NCBI GenBank assembly: GCA_030054135.1
Contig: JASGCN010000001.1
Span: forward strand, 104,663-168,662
DNA length: 64,000 nt
Direction: 5' to 3'
Origin: Alphaproteobacteria bacterium
GTDB lineage: Bacteria; Patescibacteriota; Minisyncoccia; Phycocordibacterales; JABAAK01
The first letter of the stretch is position 1, and every line of letters begins with the position of its first letter. This document shows positions 12,350 through 61,806 of this stretch, in pieces. The position numbers and the translations under genes were made by a program. The notes under the pieces are model-generated. The model worked only from the letters and a program-made list of their open reading frames with translations. It did not search any database and was not told where the DNA came from.

Positions 12350-12397
12350 TATTTTTTTATAGTTTACTTGTGATTTATTTGTTGATAAGATAGTATC

Positions 12398-31000: not shown

Positions 31001-31481
31001 GCCGAGTATTTCTTTTACTAATACATCGACACTTGAAAGAATGGCGTTAGTTCGTGGGTTAGTTTCTGAAGCGCTTGAGGCACGCGCGTCCGCGGGAATA
31101 AAAGTGCGCCAACCACTTGCATCTCTTACTGTGCCTGTCCTGCTTTCTACAGAAGAGCAATTTTTATTATTAGATGAATTAAATGTAAAAGAAATTAAAC
31201 ACGGGCATGCATGTATTCTTGATACAACAATTACAAAAGAACTTTTTGAAGAAGGAATATTAAGAGATACTGTTCGTTCTGTTCAAGATCTCAGAAAAAA
31301 ACATGGGTGCTCATCTCATGAGTTAATTGAATCAGTTGAAATATTGTCAGGAGAAGTAGGAGACATTATTGGGCGCAATGAAGAGATGTTTCTAAAAGAA
31401 GTACGAGCAAAATCATTACGAGTGCTACCTCTTCAATTAGAAGTAACAAAAGAACAACCAATTCGTATTAGTGTGCAATAA
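28002..31481 (+). CDS. ileS: isoleucyl-tRNA synthetase (type 2, eukaryote-like) with an in-frame histidine-phosphatase (PGAM-like) domain insertion
   Basis: GPPFATGLPHMGHIL (HIGH), WTTTPWTLPGN editing-domain motif, FDCWFESGAMPYAQ, KMSKS. Inserted ~180 aa carrying VYVVRHGEAENN, LTEKGRKQA, ITSPLTRTRETAQ and LIVSHASSIYAAQL (both catalytic His motifs of the histidine phosphatase superfamily). Confidence 0.9.
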   Translation: MSNSDESKKIQPILNPEERETSILSFWYTHHIFERSQDGIPPETVWQRIAEKIFGKKEYVFFDGPPFATGLPHMGHILAGAIKDSIARYKTMRGFIVKRRWGWDCHGLPVEQFVEQELGINKKEEIEKLGIGVFNAHARKSVLTFRDEWKKFVDRMGRFVDMENDYKTMDTTYMLSVWHIFSLLFKKGLVHEGHRVMQYCPRCETTLSNNEVSEGYKDVTDITVTVSLPTQHNVSLVVWTTTPWTLPGNMAVAMNKNIEYVRSSTEKGDVITSKKYAEKNNLSIKEKVSHTDLLQYRYTPPFAYTKTKSNEKCFKVYHADFVTEEGGTGLVHIAPCYGADDYALAKEHLLPIEHHITTSGCFIKELEMFHGMEVKKKDDTQSADIEVIKYLAHVGSLFAKEKIVHSYPHCWRCKVPLLNYALSTWFIDRPAYKQDLIDANKTIHWVPDHIRDGRFGNLLVEIPEWAFARTRFWGTAIPIWKNDATGKIIVIDGIQTLKQYLPKNNTVYVVRHGEAENNIQNIHNISDKEKICHLTEKGRKQAHDAGVSLKNAKIDYIITSPLTRTRETAQAIAEAIGYPTERIIVDIDLQEVQAKIDNMSFASFIEIYEKVYGIHNAFSIHGVESKLDVYMRTMKVLKKIHATYKNKNILIVSHASSIYAAQLINDGLPLQSTWDEHKGSWYDRYSTLHADPIRLEYRDFPTNEKGEIDFHRPYVDTLVLTDTQGNSYTRIKEVFDCWFESGAMPYAQHGYPDAYSSKDFNPKQHKGFPADFIAEGLDQTRGWFNSLLAVGVGAFNETPYKSVIVNGLVLDPKGKKMSKSEKNYTSPMELFNMYSADAVRHYMLNSPVVRGENLLFEDEGVSTVAKKMINRLLNCVVYYTTYANFDVSKQKSSVYIDTWIMARLERTADTVTKGYEDLAIDEAVHPLELFIDDLSTWYVRRCRDRLKENSQDGAYARGTLQYVLLELSKLMAPSMPFVSEHVYQILRTDDMPVSVHLCRWPSISFTNTSTLERMALVRGLVSEALEARASAGIKVRQPLASLTVPVLLSTEEQFLLLDELNVKEIKHGHACILDTTITKELFEEGILRDTVRSVQDLRKKHGCSSHELIESVEILSGEVGDIIGRNEEMFLKEVRAKSLRVLPLQLEVTKEQPIRISVQ

Positions 31482-47095: not shown

Positions 47096-47671
47096 ATGAG
47101 TGATATTGAGATGCCTTCATTTAAAGAATCTTTTGATATATCCACAGTGTATGCGTGGGGCAAGCGTGTATCCGTGCTTCTCGTACTTCTGTCTTTTATT
47201 GGAGGAATCGCATTTTCTATTATATATAAAGTACAGGTTTCGAGTATCAATCGGTCGGTGAACCAAATTGCAGAAGGACTTGATATTCCACTTATTGATA
47301 GCATCATAGGTATAGACAGAGAGACAAAAATTATCACCGAAGCATTTACTGGAAGAGATAGTTACCCAATACTCATACGCACACTTGCAAAGTATCTTGC
47401 GAGCAATGTCTCAATTTCAGAGGCCACTATTTCAGGAGATGTAAAAACCAACTATACCCTCAAGGCAACATTTATTGCAGATACCCCATATGCGTATGCA
47501 GAACAAATTGATATTTTTACTCAAGCACATGAAAATAAAGAACCATTCGCAAGTGGAAGTATTGCCCAAGTAAAACTAACCCCCACTCTTGCACCAGAAG
47601 GAGTTGAATTTGTCTATACACTTCAAAATATCACCGCTGAAGATATTGCAAGTATGCGGAGCACTACATAA
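47096..47671 (+). CDS. hypothetical membrane protein, possibly PilN-like pilus assembly component
   Basis: Short cytoplasmic N-terminus, one TM helix, periplasmic domain; first gene of pilus cluster. Confidence 0.4.
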   Translation: MSDIEMPSFKESFDISTVYAWGKRVSVLLVLLSFIGGIAFSIIYKVQVSSINRSVNQIAEGLDIPLIDSIIGIDRETKIITEAFTGRDSYPILIRTLAKYLASNVSISEATISGDVKTNYTLKATFIADTPYAYAEQIDIFTQAHENKEPFASGSIAQVKLTPTLAPEGVEFVYTLQNITAEDIASMRSTT

Positions 47672-47673
47672 TT

Positions 47674-48219
47674 ATGAGTAATTTTATTTCCAGTATATTT
47701 ATATGTATTATTATCGCGGGGGGGTACTATTTTCTTTCAGGCCCTGTTGTAGTTATTGCAAAAGAATACCATGCACAATACGCAAGTGTTCAAAAAATTC
47801 TTGCCAATCTAGATGCTGTAGTAAAAAAACGAGATGAACTAAAAACAAAACTTTCCACATTTAATCCAGAAGATTTAGAACAAGCAAGACAATCTGTCCC
47901 CGTATACACACCTCAAACAGAAGCTCAACTCTATATTCAAATAAAAGAATTAGCGCAAGACATTGGATTTAATAAACAAGCAGTAATTACATATGGAGAT
48001 GCATTCGACACAGAAGACGGGTATATTGCACGAAAAGTAACTATCAAAACTCCTGTTACGTATGATCAACTCAATACATTTTTTGATGTAATGGCATCAT
48101 GGAACAGGGCAATTTTTAATGAAAGTGTAAAAATAACTTCATCTACTTCTGCGAATAATGCAATACCATTACAAATGGAATATGTGTTTAGAATTATTTT
48201 TGTAAAACCAACAGTATAA
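47674..48219 (+). CDS. hypothetical membrane protein, possibly PilO-like
   Basis: N-terminal TM helix, coiled coil, then globular domain; context in pilus locus. Confidence 0.4.
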   Translation: MSNFISSIFICIIIAGGYYFLSGPVVVIAKEYHAQYASVQKILANLDAVVKKRDELKTKLSTFNPEDLEQARQSVPVYTPQTEAQLYIQIKELAQDIGFNKQAVITYGDAFDTEDGYIARKVTIKTPVTYDQLNTFFDVMASWNRAIFNESVKITSSTSANNAIPLQMEYVFRIIFVKPTV

Positions 48220-48226
48220 TATCTAT

Positions 48227-48571
48227 ATGTCTGAATCAATTGAAAAATATCTGAGAAGTTTTTTTTTCATTGCTGTTGTTTTTGGTATATGGTGGTATGT
48301 GTATAAAAATGCGCGCACCACATTGCCGATATTTGCAAATGTTTTTACAGTACAATCAAATGCCAATGTTGGAGTGTTAAGTATTGTGTCTAAATATGGG
48401 GCACTTCAAAATGTTACCTTTACAGGAGTAAGTGGAGATAGAGTTACTGATATTGCTTGGGATCAAAAGAAAAGATACGGATTTAAAAATGTTCAATACA
48501 AAGCAAAACAACCAATACAAAGGGGGAGAATAAACCCATTTTATCAAGCTCCTGTAGCGCCCGTTCAGTAA
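48227..48571 (+). CDS. hypothetical small membrane protein in pilus locus
   Basis: 114 aa, one TM helix; context only. Confidence 0.35.
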   Translation: MSESIEKYLRSFFFIAVVFGIWWYVYKNARTTLPIFANVFTVQSNANVGVLSIVSKYGALQNVTFTGVSGDRVTDIAWDQKKRYGFKNVQYKAKQPIQRGRINPFYQAPVAPVQ

Positions 48572-48626
48572 TAGCACAAGTTGAACAAAAATAACAAAAC
48601 AGTTACAATAGTGATAACAAAAAATT

Positions 48627-50225
48627 ATGCCAGTTGCTCCAGTAACAATAACGAAACTCACGCGCGTACCGACTAAACTCGCATTAATTATACCCTTTGA
48701 ATACGCAAAAAGATTTAACATTGCACCTATTAAACAAGAAGGAACAGAAATTCTTATCGCATCTTCAGATATTAAAAATCTTGATATGCGCGATGCGCTT
48801 AATTTTATTTCCGCTCATCATGGACTTACCTATACACTTCAGCAAGTAACCAAAGAAGAGCTTGTTAGTATTATTTCATCATATGGGGCCAAACAAGAAA
48901 GTATTGCTCATTCTATAGAGGAGTTAGAATCAAGCACAGATGTTATTTTAGGTGTAGATAAAGACGAAAAAGCAAAAACAGGAGTAGATATTGAAAAAGA
49001 AGAAGCTCCAATTATTAAATTTGTGCAAAATATTTTAGCCCAAGCGGTAGAGAGGGGAGCATCCGACATACACATTGAACCACATCCTGAAAATAGTGTT
49101 GTTCGTTTGCGTGTGGACAGTGTACTTGAAGAAACTCTCATTGTCCCAAAAAAAGTACACAATCCTCTCATTGCGCGTATTAAGATTCTTGCTGATATGC
49201 GACTCGATGAAAGAAGAAAACCACAAGATGGTCGTTTTTCTAGTTATGTGAAAGGAGGAAAAATTGACTTTCGTGTTGCAACATTTCCTACATACGATGG
49301 AGAAAAAGTAACACTTCGTGTTCTTGATAAACAAAAAGGACTTCTTTCGTTAAAAGATTTAGGTCTTTCACCAGAGAATTATCAATTAATTCGGACTGCT
49401 TTGCGTAGGCCATTCGGACTTATTTTAGCAACAGGGCCAACAGGTGCTGGTAAAACAACCACACTGTATTCTCTTCTTAATGAAATAGATAAAAAATCTC
49501 AAAATGTTGTTTCTCTTGAAGATCCAGTTGAATACTCTCTTGAGGGAGTAAATCAGTCAAATATTTTTCCAGAAATTGGATACACATTTGCAAACGGTTT
49601 GCGTAGTATTTTACGTGGAGATCCAAACATTATTCTTGTGGGAGAAATTCGTGACAAAGAGACAGCTCTTTTGGCGGTGCAAGCTGCTCTTACTGGGCAT
49701 ACTGTACTTTCAACCATCCACACCAATACTGCAATCGGAGCGGTTGCGCGTTTAATTAACTTCGGTATTGATCCGTTCTTGCTTGCGCCAACACTTTCAC
49801 TGGTAGTGGGACAGCGTATGATGCGCAGATTAGCAAACGCCGGTAGAGATATTCCACTTACTCCTACAATGCAAAAAAGTATTGAAAAACAATTTGAACA
49901 TGTGCCAGAGGCATATCGATCGGCAATCCCTCCGATGAAATCATTCAAAGAAGCTCTTCCAGGTGCTGAATCATCAACTGGTCTGAAGGGGAGATTGGGA
50001 GCATTTGAAGTACTAGATATCACAGATGAAATTCGAGATGCTATTCTTGCAAATGCGTCAGAATCAAAAATAGAAGAGCTCGCAGTAAAAAATGGAATGT
50101 ATACTCTCGGACAAGATGCAATTATAAAAGGACTACAAGGTTTTGTTCCATATACCGAAGTTGTAAAATTAAATGCTGATGCTGGAATTGCACTAGATGA
50201 AACTCCAGAAAGTGTCGCACAATAA
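48627..50225 (+). CDS. pilB: type IV pilus assembly ATPase PilB/GspE family
   Basis: N-terminal GSPII_E_N-like domain, Walker A LATGPTGAGKTTTLYSLL, Asp box, Walker B, His box, tetracysteine absent; 532 aa. Confidence 0.9.
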   Translation: MPVAPVTITKLTRVPTKLALIIPFEYAKRFNIAPIKQEGTEILIASSDIKNLDMRDALNFISAHHGLTYTLQQVTKEELVSIISSYGAKQESIAHSIEELESSTDVILGVDKDEKAKTGVDIEKEEAPIIKFVQNILAQAVERGASDIHIEPHPENSVVRLRVDSVLEETLIVPKKVHNPLIARIKILADMRLDERRKPQDGRFSSYVKGGKIDFRVATFPTYDGEKVTLRVLDKQKGLLSLKDLGLSPENYQLIRTALRRPFGLILATGPTGAGKTTTLYSLLNEIDKKSQNVVSLEDPVEYSLEGVNQSNIFPEIGYTFANGLRSILRGDPNIILVGEIRDKETALLAVQAALTGHTVLSTIHTNTAIGAVARLINFGIDPFLLAPTLSLVVGQRMMRRLANAGRDIPLTPTMQKSIEKQFEHVPEAYRSAIPPMKSFKEALPGAESSTGLKGRLGAFEVLDITDEIRDAILANASESKIEELAVKNGMYTLGQDAIIKGLQGFVPYTEVVKLNADAGIALDETPESVAQ

Positions 50226-50241
50226 ATAATAAAACAATACA

Positions 50242-51456
50242 ATGGTATTATGGAGTATGCTTTATACATACACAGCACTCACTCCTGATGGGCAAAAAAA
50301 GGAAGGCATCATCGATGCCAATAATCGAACAAAAGCAATTTCCGTCATACAATCAACAGGAAATGTCCTTCTCACATTACAAGAAAAACAACAAAATACA
50401 TTTTCAATTAATTTATTCGAAGGAGTAAGTAAAAAAGATTTAGTAATTTTTTCAAAGCAAGTGTCAATTCTTTTTGAAGGTTCTATTTCTCCATTGCGTG
50501 CACTCCAGCTTATTTCATCGCAAACAAAAAATGTATATTTCAGAAATATTATCGTTGGGGTGTCTGCAAAAGTAGAACAGGGAGCAACTGTCGAACAAGC
50601 GTTCCGTTCGTACAAGGATGTTTTTGATGATTTTTTTTGTGCGATTGTTGCGGTGGGGGAAGCTTCAGGAACTCTTTCTCGATCATTTCAATATTTGTCT
50701 TCATATTTGGATAAATCGTATCAATTGCAAAAAAAAATAAAGGGGGCGTTGTCGTATCCTATATTTGTCATTGCTATTTTTATAATTATCATGTTAGGTC
50801 TCTTTACCACCATTATTCCTAATCTGGGTAAAGTAATTTCTGAATCGGGGAAAGAATTACCAGCGGTAACAACTGCTGTTCTTGGGGTTAGTAAATTTCT
50901 TACAGAAAATATCTTCCTCGTTCTTGCTGGGTTGATAGGTGGTACAATAGCGCTTGTGTTTTTCTTCCGTACACCCGACGGAAAGATTTTTTTAGGAGAA
51001 ATGTTAAGTGGTATTCCTATTGTTGGGAAATTATATAGAGAGTTTTATATTGTGCGTTTTTGTGAAAACCTTTCTATTATGTTGCAGAGTGGGGTGTCAA
51101 TTGTGAAAGCACTCGAAGTTATTTCATCTGTTATGGATAATCCTACATATAGAAAAGTTGTAGAAGATATTACTCAAAAAGTAAGGCAAGGTATGAAATT
51201 ATCACAAGCAGTGGGGGGACATGCGCAGTTTGGAAAAGAGGTAGAGCAAATTGTAGTGATAGGAGAAGAAACTGGAGAAATGGCAAAAATGCTTCGTTCA
51301 GTGGCAGAGTTTTATCAAGATCAACTGCAAGATACTATCACAGCTCTCATCGGACTTATTCAACCAGTGGTGATTATTTTCTTAGGAGTAGCTGTGGGGG
51401 GTCTTGTTGGGTCAGTTATTTTGCCAATATATTCTATTGCAACGAATGTTACATAA
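50242..51456 (+). CDS. pilC: type IV pilus platform protein PilC/GspF family
   Basis: Two GspF repeats, 3-4 TM helices, 404 aa. Confidence 0.85.
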   Translation: MVLWSMLYTYTALTPDGQKKEGIIDANNRTKAISVIQSTGNVLLTLQEKQQNTFSINLFEGVSKKDLVIFSKQVSILFEGSISPLRALQLISSQTKNVYFRNIIVGVSAKVEQGATVEQAFRSYKDVFDDFFCAIVAVGEASGTLSRSFQYLSSYLDKSYQLQKKIKGALSYPIFVIAIFIIIMLGLFTTIIPNLGKVISESGKELPAVTTAVLGVSKFLTENIFLVLAGLIGGTIALVFFFRTPDGKIFLGEMLSGIPIVGKLYREFYIVRFCENLSIMLQSGVSIVKALEVISSVMDNPTYRKVVEDITQKVRQGMKLSQAVGGHAQFGKEVEQIVVIGEETGEMAKMLRSVAEFYQDQLQDTITALIGLIQPVVIIFLGVAVGGLVGSVILPIYSIATNVT

Positions 51457-51457
51457 T

Positions 51458-52060
51458 ATGGGCAAAAAAAAAGCTTTTACATTTATTGAAATGATGGTAG
51501 TAATCATAATTATCGGTGTGGTAGTTGGTACAGGAGTTAATTCATTTGATACGTTTTCTCAGCAGGGCTCTCTTCGTCTTGTAGTGAGAAATCTTACTGA
51601 AGAGATACGCACTACAGTTACACGGGCGAGTTCTGTGAGTGCTACCATACCAAAACGATTTCAAGTGTTAGTGTTGCGTACTGATGCTGCAGGCATATTT
51701 GAACAATACCAGTCATTTGAAATTAAGCAGATAGATGCAGTGTGTGAGCTCGTTCGTGAAAGAAGAAAAGTTTCTGTGGGTAATGCTTTATACCAAATTT
51801 CTTTGGGAGGAACAGCAGGAACACTTGTGATGGTTGCAGAAAATGGCTCATACAATCATGAGTGGTACCACCACACCGGGACAGAGGAAATATCAGAAAT
51901 TGCAAAAAGTACAGTGTGTTCAACAACAAAAGTAGCGTATAGCAATTTTTTTAGCATTAAAGCAAAAGACAAAGCAGGTGGATATGGAGCAAGTGCACCT
52001 ACACTTGAAATCCGAGTTGATGCAGGGGGTTCAGTTGAGTACGGCCCACCTTCAGTATGA
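51458..52060 (+). CDS. prepilin-type N-terminal cleavage/methylation domain protein (pilin/pseudopilin)
   Basis: MGKKKAFTFIEMMVVIIIIGVV class III signal peptide (G/A-FTxIE). Confidence 0.7.
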   Translation: MGKKKAFTFIEMMVVIIIIGVVVGTGVNSFDTFSQQGSLRLVVRNLTEEIRTTVTRASSVSATIPKRFQVLVLRTDAAGIFEQYQSFEIKQIDAVCELVRERRKVSVGNALYQISLGGTAGTLVMVAENGSYNHEWYHHTGTEEISEIAKSTVCSTTKVAYSNFFSIKAKDKAGGYGASAPTLEIRVDAGGSVEYGPPSV

Positions 52061-52638
52061 AAAAAAAGATTCACAAGAAAGCGTTTACTCTTATAGAAGT
52101 GATAGTAGCAACAGCACTATTTGCAATTCTTATTACTGCATTTCTTGTATTTTATTTATCATTTCTTAAAATATCAAATGCTTCGGAAAAAAAACTTATT
52201 GCAAGTGATGAAGCATTGCGGGTGCTTGATTCAATAAAAAGAGACATTTCACTTGCGCTTACCAATGAAACTATTTCTGTTACCTCTACTGGTTCAGGGT
52301 CTTCAGTAACAAGTTGTATTAATATAGAAAAACTACCGCTCACAGAAAATACTTCAGAAAGAAGCTTTGTTACCTATTATTTGGATACTTCCCTCACAAC
52401 AGGGGGTGTTTTTCGTGAAGTGTCCACACAGAGTAATGATTGTACTAGCAGAACAGGATGGAAAAAAATCTCTTCTACTAGAGTAGCCCAAATGTCTATA
52501 AATATTAGCAATATGGGAAACATTTTTTTAATCTCTCTTAGTGTGCACACTCAGAATTCACAAGGAACAGCACAGGTCGTCTTTCGTTCAAAGGCATTGG
52601 TGCACAACATAAATAGTGCTCGAATATACTATGAATAG
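52057..52638 (+). CDS. prepilin-type pilin/pseudopilin
   Basis: KKAFTLIEVIVATALFAILITAF class III signal peptide. Confidence 0.7.
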   Translation: MKKKIHKKAFTLIEVIVATALFAILITAFLVFYLSFLKISNASEKKLIASDEALRVLDSIKRDISLALTNETISVTSTGSGSSVTSCINIEKLPLTENTSERSFVTYYLDTSLTTGGVFREVSTQSNDCTSRTGWKKISSTRVAQMSINISNMGNIFLISLSVHTQNSQGTAQVVFRSKALVHNINSARIYYE

Positions 52639-53386
52639 TTTATTGTTAATATTAATAAGTGGGGTGATAGGGGCAATGGTTGCAAGTTTTCTCTGGGTAG
52701 TACAAACTGCAGAAAAACCAAAAGACATTTTTTTTAGAAGGTCAAGTTGTGAATATTGTAAAAAAAAATTAACTCCACAAATGCTTGTGCCTATATATTC
52801 ATACATTGTTCAAAAAGGAAAATGCTCATTTTGTAAAAAAAAAATATCTCCACTGTATGTGGTGGTTGAAAGTATTGTCGCTGTCTTTAGTATGTGGGCA
52901 GTATATCTATGGTTGGATGAACCGTATGTGTTAGTGCCATTTGTAATAGGGGGGGTATGTCTTCTCGTGCTTAGTGTGGCTGATGTAGTGTATCAAAGAG
53001 TAGGATCAGCAATGATATATGCATTTTTAATTTTTTCACATGCGTATGCCATATATATGATGAATGTGTTTGGCATTATACATCAATTGATTATTGCTTT
53101 TGTAGTAGCATTACCGTTCTTTCTTTTTTGGTATCTGTCAAAAGGCAAATGGATGGGGGAGGCAGATTTTTATATTGCGTGGAGCGTTGGAATGCTTGTT
53201 ATAGGGGCTCTACATGCATATGATTTCTTTTTACTTACATTTTTTTCTGGTGCAATTGTAGGAATTGGATTGTATGGTATTCGTTTCGTAGGAGGTACCA
53301 TTAAAAAAACAGTACCACTTATACCATTTATGGCGTTTGGATTTATCGCGAGTTATTTTATTAGCCCAAGTACTTTGCTTTTATAA
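52631..53386 (+). CDS. pilD: prepilin peptidase (PilD/A24 family)
   Basis: N-terminal TM helix then CEYCKKK...CSFCKKKIS tetracysteine zinc motif typical of prepilin peptidases; polytopic membrane domain. Confidence 0.75.
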   Translation: MNSLLLILISGVIGAMVASFLWVVQTAEKPKDIFFRRSSCEYCKKKLTPQMLVPIYSYIVQKGKCSFCKKKISPLYVVVESIVAVFSMWAVYLWLDEPYVLVPFVIGGVCLLVLSVADVVYQRVGSAMIYAFLIFSHAYAIYMMNVFGIIHQLIIAFVVALPFFLFWYLSKGKWMGEADFYIAWSVGMLVIGALHAYDFFLLTFFSGAIVGIGLYGIRFVGGTIKKTVPLIPFMAFGFIASYFISPSTLLL

Positions 53387-53643
53387 AGTCCTTGAATAAA
53401 ATCAGATCCTGCGTATCCAGCAATTACCACTAACCGCCAATCACCAATAACAAGATTTCCAGCCACAGCTCCTACTATTGCCGAAACTAAAACAGTGTAA
53501 AAAAGTTTACTGAATTGAAAATATTTTTTTCTTGATTCTTGAAAATGTTTTGTGAGTCCTACAAGCCCTCGTATAAGCCCACCAAACGCACCTTGCAGAG
53601 AAAAAAGTAAAGTCGAGCTTTCCAATAATTCTTGTGTCATCAT
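53353..53643 (-). CDS. hypothetical small membrane protein (Gly-zipper helices)
   Basis: 96 aa with GxxxG-rich TM segments; function unknown. Confidence 0.35.
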   Translation of the reverse strand: MMTQELLESSTLLFSLQGAFGGLIRGLVGLTKHFQESRKKYFQFSKLFYTVLVSAIVGAVAGNLVIGDWRLVVIAGYAGSDFIQGLYKSKVLGLIK

Positions 53644-53705
53644 ATATCTATAATATACAATATGTATCTAGTATTGTGAGAGGGCATTGTGTATACTCTA
53701 TTTAT

Positions 53706-53779
53706 GCGGTTGTAGCTCAGCTGGTTAGAGCACTCCCCTGTCACGGGAGGGGTCGTGGGTTCAAATCCCATCAACCGCG
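53706..53779 (+). tRNA. tRNA-Asp (GUC)
   Basis: Cloverleaf folded by eye: acceptor gcggttg/caaccgc, D arm gctc-agctggtta-gagc, anticodon arm ctccc-CTGTCAC-gggag, T arm gtggg-TTCAAAT-cccat. Confidence 0.85.
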
Positions 53780-53925
53780 CCTTTTATTTTTTCAAAAGAA
53801 AAAATATTGTGGGCGATAGAGGACTTACCTCTGACCTTCTCGGTGTAAATAAGTTGCTCTATTAAATGAATAAAAAATAATCTCTGCAATGAAATCTTTC
53901 ATTTGATATACTACAAAGAGTAACC

Positions 53926-53998
53926 GCCAATGTAGCTCAGTTGGTAGAGCACGTCCATGGTAAGGACGAGGTCACCGGTTCAATCCCGGTCATTGGCT
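53926..53998 (+). tRNA. tRNA-Thr (GGU)
   Basis: Acceptor gccaatg/cattggc, D arm gctc-agttggta-gagc, anticodon arm cgtcc-ATGGTAA-ggacg, T arm accgg-TTCAATC-ccggt. Confidence 0.85.
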
Positions 53999-53999
53999 C

Positions 54000-55487
54000 A
54001 TGCATATATTAAATAAATCAGATTTCATTCACTTTAGACAGTGCCCGTCTTCATTGTGGTTAAAAAAAAATAAACCAGAGGTATACGCAAAATATAAAAA
54101 AGCAGACGATCCTTTTTTAGAGAATCTTGCAAAACAGGGATACGCTGTAGAAACACTTGCACGCACACTGTTTCCAGATGGGATTTTTTTAGATGAACAC
54201 GACCCCCACGCGCTTGAACTAACAAAAAAAACACTCTCAACACATCACACTTTTTTTCAACCATCTTTTTCTGCAAATGGTTTTTATGCACGAGCAGATA
54301 TCTTATTGCGTGATGAAAAAAATGAAACATATCACATTATTGAAGTTAAATCTTCTTCTAAAATTAAAAAAGATAAAAATCACTCACACATTGAAGATGT
54401 TGCTTTTCAGGCATGGGTTCTTGAACAAGCAGGGTACACTGTGTCATCCATGAGTATTATTCATATTAACACAGCATATATTAAACAAGGAGAGGTTGAT
54501 GTAAAAAAATTACTCACGCAAACCGATGTTACAGAAGAAGCACGAGAATCTATGAAAACACTTGTTCCAGAAATTAAACAAGCATTCGACTATATACAAT
54601 TAAAAGATATTCCACTGGATTCATGTCAATGTTTGTATACTACAAAAAGCAATCACTGTGATACATTTTCATATTTTAATACTACATATACCAAACAATC
54701 GGTACATTATCTTATTGATATACGAAAAGAAAAATTAAAAATATTTCTTGATGCTGGTATTCATAATGTAGTGGATATTCCAATCACAGACACACTTAAC
54801 AATAGACAAGCGTCTCATGTATTATCCGCAATACACAACCGTCCAATTATTCAAAGGGAAGACATAAAAGAAATAATTGATAGTTTGGTGTACCCTCTGT
54901 ATTTTATTGACTACGAAGCGGTATCCACCGCAATTCCTATTATTGACGGCACTCATCCATATCAGCAAATACCTTTTCAATTTTCTTTGCACATTCTCAA
55001 TAAAAATGGAGAAATTACACACCATGAATACATCGCAGAAGAGTTAGTGCTACCAGATGTATTGGTACAGACAATGAAAAAATACATTGGAGATACAGGA
55101 AGTGTGGTGGTGTGGTATGAAACTTTTGAAGGATCAAGAAACAGAGAAATGATGGAGATGTTTCCACACCATCTAGATTTTTTGGCAGATATCAATAGTC
55201 GTTTGTTTGACTTGCGTGATATTTTTTATAAATATGGATATTACATTGATTATCGTACGTGTGGTTCCACCTCAATTAAATATGTGCTTCCAGTGCTATG
55301 TCCAGATCTATCGTACGATACACTTGCCATTCAAAATGGAACTTCCGCTATGGAAAGTTGGCAGAGAATGATAACGCTTCCACATTTAGAGAGAAATATT
55401 CTCAAAAAAGATTTACTCGCGTACTGTGAAAGAGATAGCTTTGCTATGATTAGAATTTTTCAAGAATTAAAAAAACTAACCTCCTAA
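54000..55487 (+). CDS. two-domain nuclease: N-terminal Cas4/RecB-like PD-(D/E)xK domain with Fe-S cysteines plus C-terminal RNase H-like (DEDD-type) domain; TM0106-like family
   Basis: N-terminal Cys (FRQCP), motifs ADILLRD and IIEVKSS (E-x-K), cysteine cluster SCQCLYTTKSNHCD; C-terminal FIDYEAVS (D-x-E) and YCERDSF (Y-x3-D). ATG starts 2 nt after the tRNA-Thr discriminator. Confidence 0.6.
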   Translation: MHILNKSDFIHFRQCPSSLWLKKNKPEVYAKYKKADDPFLENLAKQGYAVETLARTLFPDGIFLDEHDPHALELTKKTLSTHHTFFQPSFSANGFYARADILLRDEKNETYHIIEVKSSSKIKKDKNHSHIEDVAFQAWVLEQAGYTVSSMSIIHINTAYIKQGEVDVKKLLTQTDVTEEARESMKTLVPEIKQAFDYIQLKDIPLDSCQCLYTTKSNHCDTFSYFNTTYTKQSVHYLIDIRKEKLKIFLDAGIHNVVDIPITDTLNNRQASHVLSAIHNRPIIQREDIKEIIDSLVYPLYFIDYEAVSTAIPIIDGTHPYQQIPFQFSLHILNKNGEITHHEYIAEELVLPDVLVQTMKKYIGDTGSVVVWYETFEGSRNREMMEMFPHHLDFLADINSRLFDLRDIFYKYGYYIDYRTCGSTSIKYVLPVLCPDLSYDTLAIQNGTSAMESWQRMITLPHLERNILKKDLLAYCERDSFAMIRIFQELKKLTS

Positions 55488-55522
55488 ACCATAATAAGAT
55501 ACAAAGTAAGATATAATAAAAT

Positions 55523-56002
55523 ATGTCTCTAAAAGCGTTCACGTTGGTAGAAGTACTCGTTTCTCTTTTTATTGTGGGGCTTGCCATAGGAGCACCATTG
55601 TCTTTTATTTCTACCATTTCTAAAAAAAATAACCAAGAGTATAAAAATCATCAAGCGCGTCTTCTTATTGAAGAAGCACTCGCACATATTAAAGATCTAA
55701 GAAATTCTGCAACTGAAAATTCAATAACAGGCATTCCAACATCAGGAAGGTATGACCCGTCAACAAATACATTTGATGCCTATACACTTTCAGAGGCCAC
55801 TATACTTAATCAGGCTATTGGATGCCCAGTGAATAATGATGATGACATAAAAATATATATGGCAAATACCGCCCAAGGATCAGCAGATGTACGCTCTGTA
55901 ACAGTATGTGCATCGTGGAGAGAAAAAACAGAAGATGATGTGTATGAAAACAAATCATACGTAGTGCGCACCGTCATATTTAAAAACAAAATATATATAT
56001 GA
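55523..56002 (+). CDS. prepilin-type pseudopilin
   Basis: MSLKAFTLVEVLVSLFIVGLAIG class III signal peptide. Confidence 0.65.
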   Translation: MSLKAFTLVEVLVSLFIVGLAIGAPLSFISTISKKNNQEYKNHQARLLIEEALAHIKDLRNSATENSITGIPTSGRYDPSTNTFDAYTLSEATILNQAIGCPVNNDDDIKIYMANTAQGSADVRSVTVCASWREKTEDDVYENKSYVVRTVIFKNKIYI

Positions 56003-56508
56003 TTAAAAAATTTTCAGGAAGTGTCCTTATTATTGTTATGGTGATGGTTATTACTCTTATTGGAATAAGTATTCTTCTTGCACAAATAACACAAAATCGT
56101 TTTACACGAGGAGTATTGTATGACGATTCTTTTCAGGCATCTCTTATGGCGGAAGTTGGAATTGAATGTGCACAAGTTGCAATAGGGGGTACGTATGTTT
56201 TTTCGTATAACACAGCCCAGTGCACTCCATTATTTATTGAAAATAAAACATCCTTTATGCGTGTGTGGGGGGCACAAAAATCATCTGGTGGGATAGCAAC
56301 AACAAATACTGTTGTTCGTCCATGTGCAGATGTAGAAGTAACAATAGTTCCTGCGGTAGGAACTAAAACTTCTCCTGGGACATATAAGCCTTCATCTGCA
56401 AAAATTACTTCCGTTGGATATGCATGGTGCAATGGATCAAATACGAGTACCACCTATAGGTCTTTAGCAGTACAACAATTAAATGAAAGGGCAACCATTG
56501 CGCCATAG
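55999..56508 (+). CDS. pilin-like protein (minor pilin / PilX-like)
   Basis: N-terminal hydrophobic helix GSVLIIVMVMVITLIGISILLAQ after short basic leader; overlaps upstream gene by 4 nt. Confidence 0.5.
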   Translation: MIKKFSGSVLIIVMVMVITLIGISILLAQITQNRFTRGVLYDDSFQASLMAEVGIECAQVAIGGTYVFSYNTAQCTPLFIENKTSFMRVWGAQKSSGGIATTNTVVRPCADVEVTIVPAVGTKTSPGTYKPSSAKITSVGYAWCNGSNTSTTYRSLAVQQLNERATIAP

Positions 56509-56546
56509 TTTTTTGTGAGAATGTATAGATAAGGTACACTATATAT

Positions 56547-56738
56547 ATGAAAAAAATACGCGCATTTACTTTTATTGAACTTATGATCGTATTGATTATT
56601 TTTGGTGTATTTGCAACTATTGGTATTGGCTATGTGTTAAAAACTGAAGATAAAGTGACTACAACTACCGAAAACCTCAAAGGCAGTACTGGCGCTATTT
56701 CTAAATTAAAAACAATCAAATCTGAATCAGATTATTAA
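56547..56738 (+). CDS. very short (63 aa) type IV pilin
   Basis: MKKIRAFTFIELMIVLIIFGVFATIGIGYVL class III signal peptide; only ~35 residues beyond the N-terminal helix. Confidence 0.6.
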   Translation: MKKIRAFTFIELMIVLIIFGVFATIGIGYVLKTEDKVTTTTENLKGSTGAISKLKTIKSESDY

Positions 56739-56739
56739 T

Positions 56740-58737
56740 ATGGCGGTACCAGATAAAAAAATAAAATCTCACTATGAAAATTTACAAAAAGAAGTAACAC
56801 GCTTTCGTCGGCTATATCATGAACAAGATATCTCTGTTATTCCAGATTCGTCTTTGGATCTTTTAAAAAAAGAACTTGAAACATTGGAACAAACATATCC
56901 AACACTTAAAAACAAAAAAAGCCAAACACAAACAATCGCAGGTACGGTGAAGCCTGGGTTTAGTAAAGTAACACACACTGTCCAACAGTGGTCTTTTAAT
57001 GATATTTTTGAAAAAAAAGAACTGATTGATTTTATTGAACGCGTGAACGATTATGCGCATGGCGAATCAATAGATTTCTTTTGTGAAGAAAAAATAGATG
57101 GACTAAAGGTTATTCTTGAATATAAAGATGGATCATTAGTGCGCGCTTCCACACGAGGTAACGGAGTAGTGGGAGAAGATGTAACAGAAAATGTAAAAAT
57201 GATACAAGATATTCCACACACACTTACTAAAAAAATATCTTTAATTACTGAAGGAGAAGTGTATCTTTCAGTGAAAGAGTTTGATCGAATAAACAAAGAG
57301 CAACAAAAAAAAGGAGAAGATTTATTTGCTAATCCACGCAATGTGGCAGCAGGAACTCTTCGCCAACTTGATCCTGCGCTGGTAAAAGCAAGAAATCTTT
57401 CAGCATTTATTTACGATATAGCTCTTATTGATCAAACACTTTCTACTCAAAAAGAAGAAAATGCACTACTGCAATCATTGGGATTTATAGTGAATACACA
57501 TTCTTCTGTGTGTGCAGACGCAGATAGTATACAAATGTATTACACAAAACGAAGTCAAGCAAAAAGTGCTCTTCAATATTGGACTGATGGCATTGTCATA
57601 AAAGTAAATAGTATAGATTTGCAAAAAAGAATGGGCTACACAGGCAAAGCTCCGCGATTTGCTGTCGCGTATAAATTTCCTGCAGAACAGGTACCAACAA
57701 TTATTAACAATATCGTATTTCAAGTTGGGCGCACAGGGGTTATCACTCCTGTTGCAGAATGCAGTCCAACACACATCGCAGGAACTACAGTAACGAGGGC
57801 TACACTTCACAATGAAGACAGAATTAAATCACTCGATGTTCGTGTGGGGGATACAGTTATTATGCAAAAGGCGGGGGACATCATACCTGAAGTAGTTTCA
57901 GTAATAAAAAACTTACGCCCAAAAAAATCAAAACCATTTATTTGGCCAACACATATTGCTGAATGCGGTGGGGATGGATCAATTGAAAGAATTGATGGAC
58001 AATCTGCATGGCGATGTGTGTTAAAAGATTCACACACCATACAAGTAAAACGATTAGCACATTTTACAAGTAAAGTTGCTTTTGACATTGAAGGATTTGG
58101 GAAAAAAACAGTAGAACAATTTTTAACATGCAAACGCATTAAAACATATTCAGATATATTTACACTCTCTGAAAAAGATATTATAGGCCTCGAAGGATGG
58201 AAAGATAAATCAATAAAAAATCTTTTATTATCAATACGCTCACGTTCACAAATAAAATTTTCTCGTCTACTAGTATCTTTTTCAATTGATGGAGTTGGTG
58301 AGGAAGTGGCTCTTTTGCTAAGTACCCATTTTGGTACTATTGAAAAATTACTTTCTGCCAAAAAAGATGATTTACAAAGTATTGTTGGTATTGGGGAGAT
58401 ACTGCAAGACACTATATATCAATGGTGCAGAGATGTCCGTACTAAAAAAGAACTAGACTCACTACTTAAACATGTAACAATTATTCCTGATGTTGTTTCT
58501 TCAAAACACGCAGTTTCTGGTAAGCGTATTGTGATTACAGGAACTTTTTCTAACTATGGACGAGATGAAATAAAAAATAGATTAAAGTCTTTAGGCGCTC
58601 GTATTTCTGGTTCAGTATCAAAAAATACAGACTACCTTTTGGCTGGTGTTGCAGCAGGTTCAAAATTAAAAGAAGCACACAAATTATCAGTTACTGTAGT
58701 TGATGAAAAAAAACTGGAGAAATGGCTTGCCTCATGA
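56740..58737 (+). CDS. ligA: NAD-dependent DNA ligase
   Basis: Adenylation motif EEKIDGLKVILEYKDG (KxDG), OB domain, Zn finger, HhH, C-terminal BRCT (GKRIVITGTF...LKEAHKLSVTVVDEKKL). Confidence 0.9.
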   Translation: MAVPDKKIKSHYENLQKEVTRFRRLYHEQDISVIPDSSLDLLKKELETLEQTYPTLKNKKSQTQTIAGTVKPGFSKVTHTVQQWSFNDIFEKKELIDFIERVNDYAHGESIDFFCEEKIDGLKVILEYKDGSLVRASTRGNGVVGEDVTENVKMIQDIPHTLTKKISLITEGEVYLSVKEFDRINKEQQKKGEDLFANPRNVAAGTLRQLDPALVKARNLSAFIYDIALIDQTLSTQKEENALLQSLGFIVNTHSSVCADADSIQMYYTKRSQAKSALQYWTDGIVIKVNSIDLQKRMGYTGKAPRFAVAYKFPAEQVPTIINNIVFQVGRTGVITPVAECSPTHIAGTTVTRATLHNEDRIKSLDVRVGDTVIMQKAGDIIPEVVSVIKNLRPKKSKPFIWPTHIAECGGDGSIERIDGQSAWRCVLKDSHTIQVKRLAHFTSKVAFDIEGFGKKTVEQFLTCKRIKTYSDIFTLSEKDIIGLEGWKDKSIKNLLLSIRSRSQIKFSRLLVSFSIDGVGEEVALLLSTHFGTIEKLLSAKKDDLQSIVGIGEILQDTIYQWCRDVRTKKELDSLLKHVTIIPDVVSSKHAVSGKRIVITGTFSNYGRDEIKNRLKSLGARISGSVSKNTDYLLAGVAAGSKLKEAHKLSVTVVDEKKLEKWLAS

Positions 58738-58749
58738 TATGCTTTCAGT

Positions 58750-59052
58750 ATGTCTTCTTTAGAACAAACAAAGAGTGAAGTATCTCTAGATCGAGCAATA
58801 GAACTTTCTTTAATCTCATGTACCTCAGAAGAGAAACTAAATATTGTTAAAGATGTTGGCACAGTATTAGATTTTGTTAAAAGCATTCAAAACATTTCAA
58901 TACAACCCGGGCTAAAAAACACAGTTGGTTTGCCTGTATTGCGTGACGATGTTGTTCATATACAAGAAGGGCAATATTCAAAAGATTTTTTAATTTCCGC
59001 TCCTGATGTTAAAGAATCATATCTTCAGGTTAAAAAAATTATTACAAAATAG
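58750..59052 (+). CDS. gatC: Asp/Glu-tRNA(Asn/Gln) amidotransferase subunit C
   Basis: 100 aa; LSxxEEKLN...VLDFVKSIQ...LRDDVV pattern of GatC and position immediately upstream of gatA. Confidence 0.7.
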   Translation: MSSLEQTKSEVSLDRAIELSLISCTSEEKLNIVKDVGTVLDFVKSIQNISIQPGLKNTVGLPVLRDDVVHIQEGQYSKDFLISAPDVKESYLQVKKIITK

Positions 59053-59053
59053 T

Positions 59054-60475
59054 ATGAATCGTGAGTGGTATCAAAAAGCAAATATTGTAGATATGCGCAA
59101 GGCACTCGATGGGGGAACAGTGTCAGTAAAACAATTAGTACAATGGGCAAAAGAGATTATAGAAGAGAAAAACAAATCAATTAATGCATTTATTGAAGTG
59201 TGGGATGTGAATGAAGATGAAATAGCACAAGCACAACAATTAATTGATCAAAAAAAATCATTTATTCTTACAGGCATTCCATATGCAATTAAAGATAATA
59301 TTTCATACAAAGGGAAACACATAACCGCCTCGTCAAAAATTCTTGCAACATATATAGCTTCGTATGATGCAACCGTTGTGGTAAAAATAAAAAAACAACA
59401 TGCACTTTGCATTGGAAGATTAAATTGTGATGAGTTTGCTATGGGGTCGGGAACTGAAAATTCAATTTTTGGGCCAACAAAAAATCCAGCTGACACAACA
59501 AGAGTGGCAGGTGGGTCGTCAGGTGGGTCTGCAGCTGCGGTTGCAATAGGAGCTGTGCCATTTGCCTTAGGAAGTGATACGGGTGGTTCAATACGACAAC
59601 CTGCATCATACTGTGGTGTTGTTGGATTAAAACCAGCATATGGAACAGTTTCTCGATATGGACTCATTGCACTCGGCTCTTCGTTGGATGTGATTGGCCC
59701 ATGCACAAAAACTGTGGAAGATGCGTTTATTGTAATGGAAGTAATTTCAGGAGAAGATAGTTTTGATATGACAACAAAAAATGCAAGAGCAAAAAAAAGT
59801 GCAGTAATGGGGAAAAAATTATTAGAACCAAAAAACATCAAAGAATTGGTATCTCCTGAAGTATGGGATCAATATTCAGCAACAAAAGAAAAATTAAAAA
59901 AAGAAGGGTATTATATTGATGAAATAGATATTTCGCTTTTTACACATGGACTTGCAATGTATTATATTATTCAACCCGCAGAAGCTTCTTCCAATTTAGC
60001 ACGAATGGACGGAATGCGCTTTGGAGTACGCAAAGAAGGTGAGGGCGGATTATGGAGTGATTATCTTGAAAGCAGAAAAGTAGGACTTGGGCATGAGGTT
60101 AAAAAAAGAATTGTATTAGGTACGTATGTGTTATCAGCGGGGCACTACGATGCGTACTATGGAAAGGCAGACGCATTACGGTCTTCATTTATAGATGAAG
60201 TAAATCTTTTAACAGAATCATACGATGCATTGATATGCCCCACAACATGTGATGTTGCTTTTAAAATAGGGCTTACTCGAAATCTTATTGAAGTATACAA
60301 TGAAGACAAACTTACCGTACAAGCAAATTTACTAGGGTCTGCAGCAATATCAGTCCCTATGGGTTCAATCAACAATCTTCCAGTAGGTATACAAATAATG
60401 ACAAGCCCAAATCGTGCTGATAGTAACACAATACTTAAAACAATTGCAGAAGTGGTAGAAAAAATAAGAGCATAA
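59054..60475 (+). CDS. gatA: Asp/Glu-tRNA(Asn/Gln) amidotransferase subunit A (amidase)
   Basis: Amidase signature GGSSGGSAAAVA and Ser-cisSer-Lys triad region (GSDTGGSIRQPA). Confidence 0.85.
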   Translation: MNREWYQKANIVDMRKALDGGTVSVKQLVQWAKEIIEEKNKSINAFIEVWDVNEDEIAQAQQLIDQKKSFILTGIPYAIKDNISYKGKHITASSKILATYIASYDATVVVKIKKQHALCIGRLNCDEFAMGSGTENSIFGPTKNPADTTRVAGGSSGGSAAAVAIGAVPFALGSDTGGSIRQPASYCGVVGLKPAYGTVSRYGLIALGSSLDVIGPCTKTVEDAFIVMEVISGEDSFDMTTKNARAKKSAVMGKKLLEPKNIKELVSPEVWDQYSATKEKLKKEGYYIDEIDISLFTHGLAMYYIIQPAEASSNLARMDGMRFGVRKEGEGGLWSDYLESRKVGLGHEVKKRIVLGTYVLSAGHYDAYYGKADALRSSFIDEVNLLTESYDALICPTTCDVAFKIGLTRNLIEVYNEDKLTVQANLLGSAAISVPMGSINNLPVGIQIMTSPNRADSNTILKTIAEVVEKIRA

Positions 60476-60481
60476 TAGAGT

Positions 60482-61516
60482 ATGGCAGATGAAAAAAAAG
60501 AAAAATCAGATAAACCTGCGAAGGTGGAGACGCCAACGCCATCATTCATTGAAAGTTGGATAGAACAATACGAAACACCTCCTACATTCGCAGTATTTTT
60601 ATTCATGGCAGTGTTTATTAGCGCAACTGTCATATCAAGTTTTATGGGAACGTGTAGTCAAACACGCCCGCACTCTCCGGAAGATGTTGCATTGCAATCT
60701 GGTGCAATTGTTGTTTCAAGTCGCGCAATACCAATTGATAAAGGAAAATTTGGAACAATGTTTGTCTCGCCAAATGTCTGTGGGGTAGTGCTATTTGTGC
60801 ATCCGAACGGAAAAGAAGCATGGGTGAGATTTTTTGAAAAAGAAAAACCAAGTGGGGTAAAATCTCTTGAAGATATTCGCGCATTTTTTGATCAGGATAT
60901 TATTCGTACGTATGGATATTTCTACACACCGCCAAACATTAAACGAGTGAGCCTTGAGGGTCAGGTGTATCTCATTGATACACATGTGATTACTAATTAC
61001 GCACGAATATTTGTATATTGGACATATATATTGGTATTTTTATTCATTCCTTTAATTCTATTGTTTATGTATAAAGTTATTATTGAACGTGATGAATTAA
61101 AAATTACATACAAAAAACACACCGAACGGATACAAAGAAGAATTCGTCTTGTGCGAAATAAAGTGCTATACGACACACTGCGATCTGAATCAGTTATTGC
61201 ATTTAAAGATGCACTCACCCCACTTGATGTGGCTGTGGCAACGCGAGGTCTTCTTTCTTTACAACTTATTCTTGAAAAAACTCTCATTTTACTCGCGGAA
61301 TACGAGGGGGATGTACTTGAAGAGATGGTTTTAATTGCAGAAAAAGAAAAGAAAAAGTTATACCGACATGAAGATATTAAGGCAATACTTGCATACACCA
61401 ATGTATTGCGTCATTCAGAGGTATCAGAACCAGTTCGTTTTGAAGAAATTTTAACACACACAAAAAATCTAAAAGAACTTTTGTTTTATTTTGGGCTTAT
61501 TGATTCTAAAAAATAA
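60482..61516 (+). CDS. hypothetical membrane protein (2 TM helices, cytoplasmic C-terminal domain)
   Basis: 344-aa ORF; no recognisable catalytic motif. Confidence 0.45.
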   Translation: MADEKKEKSDKPAKVETPTPSFIESWIEQYETPPTFAVFLFMAVFISATVISSFMGTCSQTRPHSPEDVALQSGAIVVSSRAIPIDKGKFGTMFVSPNVCGVVLFVHPNGKEAWVRFFEKEKPSGVKSLEDIRAFFDQDIIRTYGYFYTPPNIKRVSLEGQVYLIDTHVITNYARIFVYWTYILVFLFIPLILLFMYKVIIERDELKITYKKHTERIQRRIRLVRNKVLYDTLRSESVIAFKDALTPLDVAVATRGLLSLQLILEKTLILLAEYEGDVLEEMVLIAEKEKKKLYRHEDIKAILAYTNVLRHSEVSEPVRFEEILTHTKNLKELLFYFGLIDSKK

Positions 61517-61724: not shown

Positions 61725-61798
61725 GACGGAGTAGAGCAGTCAGGTAGCTCGCCAGGCTCATAACCTGGAGGTCCTTGGTTCAAATCCAAGCTCCGTCA
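61725..61798 (+). tRNA. tRNA with CAU anticodon (elongator Met or Ile2; lacks initiator features)
   Basis: Acceptor gacggag/ctccgtc (G1-C72 paired), D arm gagc-agtcaggta-gctc, anticodon arm ccagg-CTCATAA-cctgg, T arm cttgg-TTCAAAT-ccaag. Confidence 0.8.
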
Positions 61799-61806
61799 CA
61801 ATATAT

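Follow-up and report, generated by a model that had tools for sequence, protein, structure and literature searches.

Why a gene for a two-domain nuclease should begin directly at the end of a tRNA gene, and be followed by pilin-like genes and the DNA ligase gene ligA, is the question raised by one locus of contig JASGCN010000001.1 (assembly GCA_030054135.1). We examined a stretch of 64,000 nucleotides of this contig (positions 104,663 to 168,662 of the forward strand), here referred to as the window, with all coordinates counted from its first letter. The gene in question is an open reading frame (ORF) of 495 amino acids at 54000..55487 on the + strand, directly 3′ of a tRNA-Thr(GGT) gene at 53926..53999 (+). 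A preliminary description of this DNA had proposed either an island integrated at the tRNA site or a module for DNA uptake and processing; the arrangement itself, with the ORF after tRNA-Thr and then pilin-like genes and ligA, was borne out by the ORF calls and by ARAGORN. The comparison with other genomes showed that the gene, a member of the DUF2779 family (PF11074), is a chromosomal, vertically inherited core gene in an old syntenic block of a clade of Patescibacteria related to Kaiserbacteria. The full explanation that we favour joins to this identity and inheritance a passenger position among pilus genes and an expression linked to the tRNA, and as a whole we consider it moderately probable.

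A syntenic block inherited with the chromosome

The order tRNA-Thr(GGT), DUF2779, pilinA, pilinB and LigA was also found in five other genomes (loci L084, L167, L168, L169 and L171), among which L169 is the Kaiserbacteria metagenome-assembled genome GCA_028820405.1. The proteins of these five are 40–44% (DUF2779) and 51–54% (LigA) identical to those of the window. In these five relatives, pilinA has about 200 amino acids and an N_methyl motif, while pilinB is a PilX/ComGG-like protein of about 190–200 amino acids. Each of them has one counterpart in the window, as a hidden Markov model (HMM) of the relatives' pilinA had its sole match among the window ORFs in pp3 (55523..56002, +; E = 8e-5) and that of pilinB in pp4 (55999..56508, +; E = 1e-7). 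Beyond ligA (56740..58737, +), the window continues with gatC (58750..59052, +), gatA (59054..60475, +) and a gene for a membrane protein of 344 amino acids (60482..61516, +), all identified by gene calls and Pfam. This order is kept in L084, L168, L169 and L171, and it is followed by tRNA-Met wherever the contigs reach. In the five syntenic relatives, pilinB is followed by LigA with no ORF in between; thus the 63-amino acid prepilin gene pp5, which occupies this place in the window (56547..56738, +), is a lineage-specific addition, and its product may be the major pilin.

The divergence of the nuclease is in step with that of its neighbour, as the pairwise identities of DUF2779 and of LigA were closely correlated among seven genomes (r = 0.97). 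The GC content of the DUF2779 gene followed that of the host locus in the seven genomes, from 0.34 to 0.56. The window genome is the outgroup of the clade, with identities of 51–54% in LigA and 40–46% in DUF2779, and the block is therefore older than the deepest split that was sampled. The searched collections contained no relative above 55% LigA identity, and the comparison covers more distant genomes.

The linkage can be lost, as shown by a lineage (L083 and L085/L086) which is nested in the clade, with LigA up to 74% identical to that of other members, and in which DUF2779 and LigA lie apart. There, the DUF2779 gene was found between unrelated genes, and around LigA in the L083 genome neither tRNA-Thr nor DUF2779 nor pilins are present. 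A placement of L083 and L085 as a sister clade was rejected, since the LigA and the DUF2779 identities put both inside the clade.

The synteny ends on the 5′ side of tRNA-Thr. In the five relatives an ABC-F gene and bacA are found there, as opposed to the pilus machinery, a 96-amino acid ORF (53353..53643, −) and tRNA-Asp(GTC) in the window. The tRNA-Asp gene (53706..53781, +; ARAGORN, and Rfam with 71 bits) is outside the conserved block and is missing 5′ of tRNA-Thr in L084, L167–L169 and L171. We infer that a rearrangement took place at this upstream junction in the window lineage. The pilus machinery and tRNA-Asp would have moved to a position just 5′ of tRNA-Thr, and the nuclease gene, with pilus genes on both sides, is probably a passenger among them. 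The 96-amino acid ORF, known from the ORF list, encodes a predicted membrane protein with weak glycine-zipper/holin-like matches; it shares 34 nt with the 3′ end of the prepilin peptidase gene and lies exactly where the synteny with the relatives stops.

The best relatives of both LigA and DUF2779 were from Kaiserbacteria and other Patescibacteria, the gene content likewise points to Patescibacteria near Kaiserbacteria, and the NCBI label of the assembly, ‘Alphaproteobacteria bacterium’, is probably a mislabel.

The DUF2779 protein and its two nuclease domains

The protein (MDI9325325.1, annotated in NCBI as ‘DUF2779 domain-containing protein’) is a soluble two-nuclease member of its family. 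A Cas4/MGME1-like PD-(D/E)xK domain (about residues 1–225; 54000..54674, +) is followed by a helical linker (about residues 226–295; 54675..54884, +) and by a DUF2779/DEDDy 3′–5′ exonuclease-like domain (about residues 296–495; 54885..55487, +). The only significant Pfam family was PF11074, whose full model (positions 1–126) matched residues 301–425 with 118.2 bits (cut-off 23.3; E = 3.6e-34). The Cas4 HMMs of PADLOC matched residues 6–186 (E = 1.4e-5), so that the profile homology to Cas4 expected for the N-terminal domain was found, and no PADLOC system model was obtained beyond the Cas4/Cas1g domain matches. The linker matched no family, and its helices were taken from the secondary structure of the AlphaFold2 model (pLDDT 89–98).

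Other profiles gave fainter signals. When the two halves were scanned separately, PDDEXK_1 reached E = 0.008, and RNase_H_2 (PF13482) reached E = 0.024 with the isolated C-terminal domain (15 bits; cut-off 22); both stayed below the Pfam cut-offs, and a precomputed PF13482 match is present in some homologues. In NCBIfam, the UU173 family was matched below its cut-off (85 vs 225 bits) and by the C-terminal part only, along with a faint Cas4g/Cas1g match, and PHROGs gave a weak match to a CRISPR-associated family (E = 0.002). TIGR03491, the TM0106 family, had no match at E ≤ 0.1 in the NCBIfam search. Of the profiles which the preliminary description had named, Cas4 was thus recovered, PDDEXK_1 and RNase_H_2 were seen only below the cut-offs and TIGR03491 was not seen, and its label ‘TM0106-type’ has to be replaced by DUF2779.

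Conservation was examined in an alignment of 35 sequences, made of the window protein and 34 homologues with 36–45% identity to it. Twelve residues were invariant (C15, D100, E115, K117, Q137, C209, C220, D304, E306, D404, Y475 and D479), and C211 was kept in at least 90% of the aligned sequences. They include a cysteine set (C15 and C209-x-C211-x8-C220), a PD-(D/E)xK set (D100 and E115-x-K117) and a DEDDy set (D304-x-E306, D404 and Y475-x3-D479). The motifs are therefore as they had been read from the translation, and the catalytic residues among them are invariant throughout the alignment. The four conserved cysteines, placed as in Cas4 and AddB, suggest an iron–sulfur (Fe-S) cluster.

The AlphaFold2 model built on the same alignment had a pLDDT of 95 and a pTM of 0.89. 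Its best Foldseek match in the PDB was the Cas4 of a type I-C system (8d3l_I, E = 5.6e-5). For the N-terminal half the next matches were MGME1, the Cas4 protein Pcal_0546, Cas4-Cas1, RecE and AdnA, and for the C-terminal half the DEDD exonucleases ERI2, 3′hExo and ExoI. Sequence searches of the PDB, with the single sequence as well as with the 35-sequence profile, gave no match at E ≤ 10. Taken together, PADLOC, Foldseek, PF11074 and the conservation confirm the earlier reading of the ORF as a Cas4/RecB-like PD-(D/E)xK domain of the Fe-S type fused to an RNase H-like exonuclease. No hydrophobic N-terminal segment was seen by eye in the sequence or in the first helices of the model, which points to a cytoplasmic nuclease.

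The two-nuclease architecture is not new, as it was already published for the DUF2779 family. Majorek et al. (2014; PMC3985635) placed DUF2779 (their F.17) in a clade of RNase H-like 3′–5′ exonucleases and described its fusion to DUF83/PD-(D/E)xK; the COG2251/TM0106-type proteins formed another family of that clade, F.13. The TIGR03491/TM0106 proteins are an analogous fusion of a Cas4/DUF83-like PD-(D/E)xK domain to an RNase H-like 3′–5′ exonuclease, and the label ‘TM0106-type’ fits the architecture only. Among members of the DUF2779 family proper, MMSYN1_0389, Mbov_0804 and the UU173 family (NF045869) share both domains and the catalytic residues with the window protein, and those from mollicutes are longer. 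MMSYN1_0389 of JCVI-syn3.0, described as Cas4-like plus DEDDy, has two of the four cysteines (PMC13621843, mSphere 2026), whereas all four Cas4-type cysteines are found in the window protein and the 34 aligned homologues. With the CRISPR Cas4 proteins (8d3l of type I-C; Pcal_0546, 4r5q) the window protein has in common the D...ExK motif and four cysteines, but it differs in its fusion to a DEDDy exonuclease and in the cysteine spacing C-x-C-x8-C. No CRISPR-array-like repeats were found in the window, and no cas1 or cas2 was recognised among the window ORFs that were read.

MMSYN1_0389 is quasi-essential in syn3.0, and the best HHpred match reported for the C-terminal domain is the DNA-repair exonuclease MrfB (PMC13621843). 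A DUF2779 mutant of Mycoplasma bovis, a nucleotide auxotroph, grows poorly in cell culture (PMC7373297). These phenotypes indicate that the family is of importance to organisms with reduced genomes, without defining a pathway. For the protein itself little changes with the present analysis, as annotation and architecture were known; in a family that is widespread, in places quasi-essential and biochemically uncharacterised, it adds a member which keeps the full set of Cas4 cysteines and has a model with a pLDDT of 95.

The contact between tRNA-Thr and the start codon

In the window, the ATG of the DUF2779 gene follows tRNA-Thr after 0–1 nt, depending on whether the tRNA end is taken from ARAGORN (53999) or from Rfam (53926..53998, 68 bits), and not after 2 nt as had been stated. 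The CCA end of this tRNA is not encoded. With the ARAGORN end, the distance is 0 nt in the window, and it is 3 nt in L084, 4 nt in L167 and 7 nt in L169. The position of the start codon is secured by the conserved N-terminus of the protein, with L-x-K-[ST]-D-[FY] at residues 4–9 and the invariant C15.

A TATACT or TATATT box was detected 8–14 nt 5′ of tRNA-Thr in all six genomes. In the window it forms part of an extended −10-like element, TGaTATACT (53904..53912, +; read from the sequence), which lies 13 nt 5′ of the tRNA and is the putative promoter of a tRNA-Thr/DUF2779 transcript. Few genes of the window seem to be preceded by a Shine-Dalgarno (SD) site, as SD-like tetramers at −18..−6 were found in 8 of 63 genes. 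TATAAT-like hexamers with at most 1 mismatch, on the other hand, started at −14..−11 relative to the start codon in 21 of the 63, against 0–2 genes at most other positions. The relatives were alike, with SD-like motifs in 6/63 and 8/58 genes and a peak of TANNNT at −14..−11. This pattern, poor in SD motifs and with a −10 box near the start, is common to the window and to the Kaiserbacteria-like L084, L167–L171, L083 and L085. Such −10-like boxes about 12 nt before the start codons, along with few SD motifs, are, as far as sequence patterns tell, the signature of leaderless mRNAs.

The contact between the tRNA and the ATG is most likely a feature of expression and not a scar of integration. The tRNA-Thr promoter would drive a joint transcript of tRNA and DUF2779, from which the CCA-less tRNA would be excised by RNase Z or an equivalent enzyme, leaving a nuclease mRNA with a leader of 1–9 nt. 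Such a nearly leaderless mRNA would suit a lineage with few SD motifs, whose ribosomes would use leaders of this kind. A second abutment was observed in the window, where tRNA-Met(CAT) (61725..61799) is followed after a gap of 7 nt by the ATG of an RF2-like prfB at 61807.

Protein genes that follow tRNA genes are known from other systems. In the thrU-tyrU-glyT-thrT-tufB operon of E. coli, a protein gene is co-transcribed 3′ of tRNAs and tRNA excision sets the 5′ end of its mRNA, and in the tRNA punctuation of mitochondria the excision of tRNAs likewise defines mRNA 5′ ends. tufB has a normal leader and a Shine-Dalgarno site. With the start codon 0–9 nt past the tRNA in 4 of the 6 clade genomes, the DUF2779 gene would resemble the mitochondrial genes and differ from tufB, provided that the transcript is processed as proposed. 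It is possible, though we put it forward only tentatively, that leaderless or nearly leaderless expression is routine in this clade, and that DUF2779 and prfB acquire their 5′ ends from tRNA excision in a mitochondrion-like manner. A literature search on leaderless expression in Patescibacteria and on tRNA-generated leaderless mRNAs in bacteria found nothing relevant in the collection of papers that was covered. If true, such 5′ ends would bear on translation start in the reduced genomes of Patescibacteria and on gene calling. What stays mildly interesting at the locus is thus a conserved abutment of tRNA and start codon, in a clade whose sequences bear the signature of leaderless transcripts.

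Proposed activity, alternative roles and the neighbouring genes

The protein is predicted to process DNA ends of both polarities, by analogy of its N-terminal domain with Cas4, MGME1, RecE and AddB and from the MrfB match reported for the C-terminal one. Single-stranded 5′ ends or flaps would be the targets of the Cas4-like domain, and 3′ ends would be shortened by the DEDDy domain. With both activities, the protein would serve repair, recombination or DNA turnover by processing or degrading DNA ends.

The neighbourhoods of the family were surveyed at 80 genome loci and 80 metagenome loci, obtained by a scan with the family alignment, plus individually retrieved homologues, by means of six-frame ORFs, phmmer searches started from the window neighbours, a detector of prepilin motifs and ARAGORN. 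Clustering of the neighbours at 163 loci revealed no partner at more than 8 loci, thus guilt by association gives no function at the level of the family. The recurrent neighbours were an SF1 helicase fused to REase_MTES_1575 (8 loci, upstream of DUF2779 every time), serine recombinases, ParB-type and C5 DNA methylases, SNF2 helicases, HsdR and a second RNase_H_2 exonuclease.

Several points weigh against the favoured explanation. The pilin linkage is conserved across the deepest split of the clade, which leaves room for a functional tie. The abutment is not strict, as tRNA and ATG are 25 nt apart in L171 and about 117 nt apart in L168. The −10 element of tRNA-Thr was not listed by a consensus promoter scan, because the scan requires a −35 match; the counts of consensus promoters and terminators were no higher than in shuffled sequence. 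The substrate (DNA or RNA), the polarity and the Fe-S binding are all predicted from homologous domains. Genes of defence or mobility type were found within 4 kb at 33 of the 163 loci (about 20%, a figure without a baseline), and 37 homologues are on IMG/VR (viral-class) contigs, so that a role of the family in defence or in mobile elements is possible.

The protein might instead be an RNA or oligonucleotide exonuclease, with a DEDDy domain like that of RNase T, RNase D or oligoribonuclease (Orn), and with the tRNA linkage as a hint of an RNA substrate. RNase T, RNase D and Orn all belong to the DEDD-family enzymes. ERI2 and 3′hExo, which were among the Foldseek matches, are RNA exonucleases, the gene is preceded by a CCA-less tRNA in six genomes, and the DUF2779 mutant of M. 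bovis came from the same screen as mutants of NrnA and GdpP (PMC7373297). We nevertheless think this unlikely, as the characterised relatives of the N-terminal domain (Cas4, MGME1, RecE and AddB/AdnA) are DNA nucleases, the reported best match of the C-terminal domain is a DNA-repair enzyme (PMC13621843) and the tRNA neighbour is absent at about 160 other loci. A tRNA within a few hundred nt 5′ of DUF2779 was found at 3 loci outside the clade, none of them tRNA-Thr.

In the uptake module that had been proposed, the nuclease, a competence-type pilus and LigA would handle imported DNA, for salvage or recombination. The nuclease gene does stand between pilus genes in the window, and DUF2779, pilinA, pilinB and LigA are adjacent in six genomes, across the deepest clade split. 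Type IV pili and Com genes abound in bacteria of the candidate phyla radiation (CPR), which have no nucleotide synthesis and whose ComEC generally has no metallo-beta-lactamase nuclease domain (PMC6744442). Saccharibacteria are naturally competent (PMC10633639), and the poor growth of the M. bovis DUF2779 mutants in cell culture (PMC7373297) would also fit. However, what was kept within the clade was not found elsewhere. Outside it, pilin-like ORFs near DUF2779 numbered 0 within 1 kb and 2 within 3 kb at the 80 genome loci, and PilB, PilC and LigA neighbours were essentially absent at about 160 other DUF2779 loci; inside it, DUF2779 and LigA of the nested L083/L085 lineage lie apart and have no pilins beside them. 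The linkage to the pilins is no tighter than the neighbouring linkage of LigA to GatCA, and a perfect TATAAT lies 5 nt 5′ of the pp3 ATG, so that a shared transcript with the nuclease is not required.

The protein itself, with no hydrophobic N-terminal segment, is probably not the nuclease that degrades a strand outside the cell. Transposon sequencing (Tn-seq) of Southlakia suggested that the Com machinery is dispensable for nucleotide acquisition (PMC10633639), and the Tn-seq supplement of the Saccharibacteria genetics paper does not mention DUF2779, Cas4 or RecB. ComEC, ComEA and DprA were not recognised when window ORFs were inspected by eye or with Pfam, part of the ORFs being searched against profiles. 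To our knowledge, the known Com loci are without a Cas4-DEDD nuclease. The pilin and ligase neighbourhood is the inherited synteny of one clade, and it should therefore not be read as evidence for DUF2779 as a competence nuclease. The uptake module is weakly supported at best and, in our view, improbable; that the nuclease, as a further layer of the tentative reading of mRNA 5′ ends set by tRNA excision, handles imported DNA in the cytoplasm together with LigA and the minor pilins next to it is less likely than that reading.

A role in immunity of the solo-Cas4 type, in which foreign DNA ends would be degraded in defence as proposed for MMSYN1_0389, appears quite improbable for the window copy. 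The Cas4 homology seen by Foldseek and PADLOC would allow it, the family was placed under immunity connections in PMC13621843, and the genes of defence or mobility type at the 33 loci mentioned above were restriction–modification (RM), SF1-helicase-REase, SNF2 or serine-recombinase genes. But CRISPR arrays, cas genes and RM genes were not seen in the vicinity of the window copy, with part of the window ORFs searched against profiles, nor in the five relatives that have the block, PADLOC reported nothing beyond the domain matches, and a stable vertical descent in a housekeeping block is unusual for defence genes.

The proposal of an island, in which site-specific integration at the 3′ end of tRNA-Thr would have brought in the nuclease, alone or together with the pilins, is refuted by the same gene order in five other genomes of widely differing GC, which is decisive, and although the gene adjoins a tRNA 3′ end, has relatives on IMG/VR contigs and serine recombinases near it at 7 other loci, its divergence keeps step with that of LigA, the tRNA-Thr 3′ end is unique in the window (as a 23-mer with ≤3 mismatches and a 15-mer with ≤2 mismatches), a general direct-repeat scan of the window found nothing relevant, no integrase or recombinase lies between 53300 and 61600, and the composition is ordinary, the AT-richness that had been noted being nominal (GC 0.337 vs 0.361 ± 0.029 over 63 window genes, z = −0.8; GC3 z = +0.26).

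Under the favoured explanation, the nuclease gene is probably a passenger among the pilus genes. Both tRNAs and the nuclease gene are enclosed by a type IV pilus locus in the window genome. Its upstream part (47096..53386), with a PilO-like protein, PilB, PilC, two prepilins and a peptidase, had been overlooked in the preliminary description. It begins with three ORFs for small membrane proteins (47096..48571, +; ORF calls), the middle one of which (47674..48219, +) is weakly PilO-like (Pfam PilO E = 0.0047, below the cut-off). They are followed by the gene for an assembly ATPase of the PilB/GspE type with an N-terminal MshEN domain (48627..50225, +; PF00437 T2SSE E = 2e-108, MshEN E = 1e-8) and by that for a PilC/GspF platform protein (50242..51456, +; PF00482 T2SSF E = 1e-54). 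Then come the minor prepilins pp1 (51461..52060, +; N_methyl E = 4e-6) and pp2 (52057..52638, +; N_methyl E = 8e-7), both with a GspH/ComGE-like N-terminus, and a divergent prepilin peptidase of the A24 family (52616..53386, +; A24_N_bact E = 1e-20, Peptidase_A24 E = 5e-4 and below its cut-off).

Downstream of the nuclease, three prepilin genes had been counted. Of these, pp3, a minor prepilin (N_methyl E = 8e-5), and pp5 have the N_methyl motif, but pp4, a PilX/ComGG-like minor pilin with a weak ComGG_2 match, has no canonical cleavage motif; pp5 is the minimal pilin of the preliminary description, and its prepilin motif was confirmed (N_methyl E = 5e-7, TIGR02532 E = 6e-6). For ATPase, platform, peptidase and prepilins the set is thus complete (T2SSE, T2SSF, A24_N_bact and four N_methyl proteins). 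Compared with the ComG/type IV pilus loci of competence, the window has PilB/ComGA-like and PilC/ComGB-like proteins, a prepilin peptidase and five pilin-like genes. Several of the pilins weakly matched ComGC–GG models, all ComG equivalog scores being far below the cut-offs. The canonical prepilins pp1, pp2, pp3 and pp5 carry Ala at position −1 of the peptidase site (K/R-A-F-T-[LF]-[IV]-E), where Gly is usual; in those orthologues of the relatives which have a canonical prepilin N-terminus (L084, L169 and L171), Gly is found at this position.

Other features of the window were also recorded. The spacer between tRNA-Asp and tRNA-Thr, given earlier as 146 nt, measures 144–146 nt. As 53782..53925 (144 nt) it has a predicted fold of −31 kcal/mol (z = −2.8 vs shuffled sequences), with an A/U hairpin directly 3′ of tRNA-Asp and an AGAGG...CCUCU hairpin, and it also holds the putative tRNA-Thr promoter. 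An Rfam search of 53300–56900 returned the two tRNAs and no other match, in the spacer or elsewhere. At 14033..16966, a membrane-anchored P-loop protein of 977 amino acids has a weak match of the VirD4/TraG type (T4SS-DNA_transf E = 3e-5) and is possibly a DNA translocase. It is preceded, at 10748..13999, by two tandem and closely related ABC-F-type ATPases of 533 amino acids each; the relatives have a single ABC-F before BacA and tRNA-Thr. Finally, an IleRS-like protein of 1159 amino acids (28002..31481) contains a His_Phos_1 domain (residues 507–675, E = 2e-28) inserted within its class I catalytic domain.

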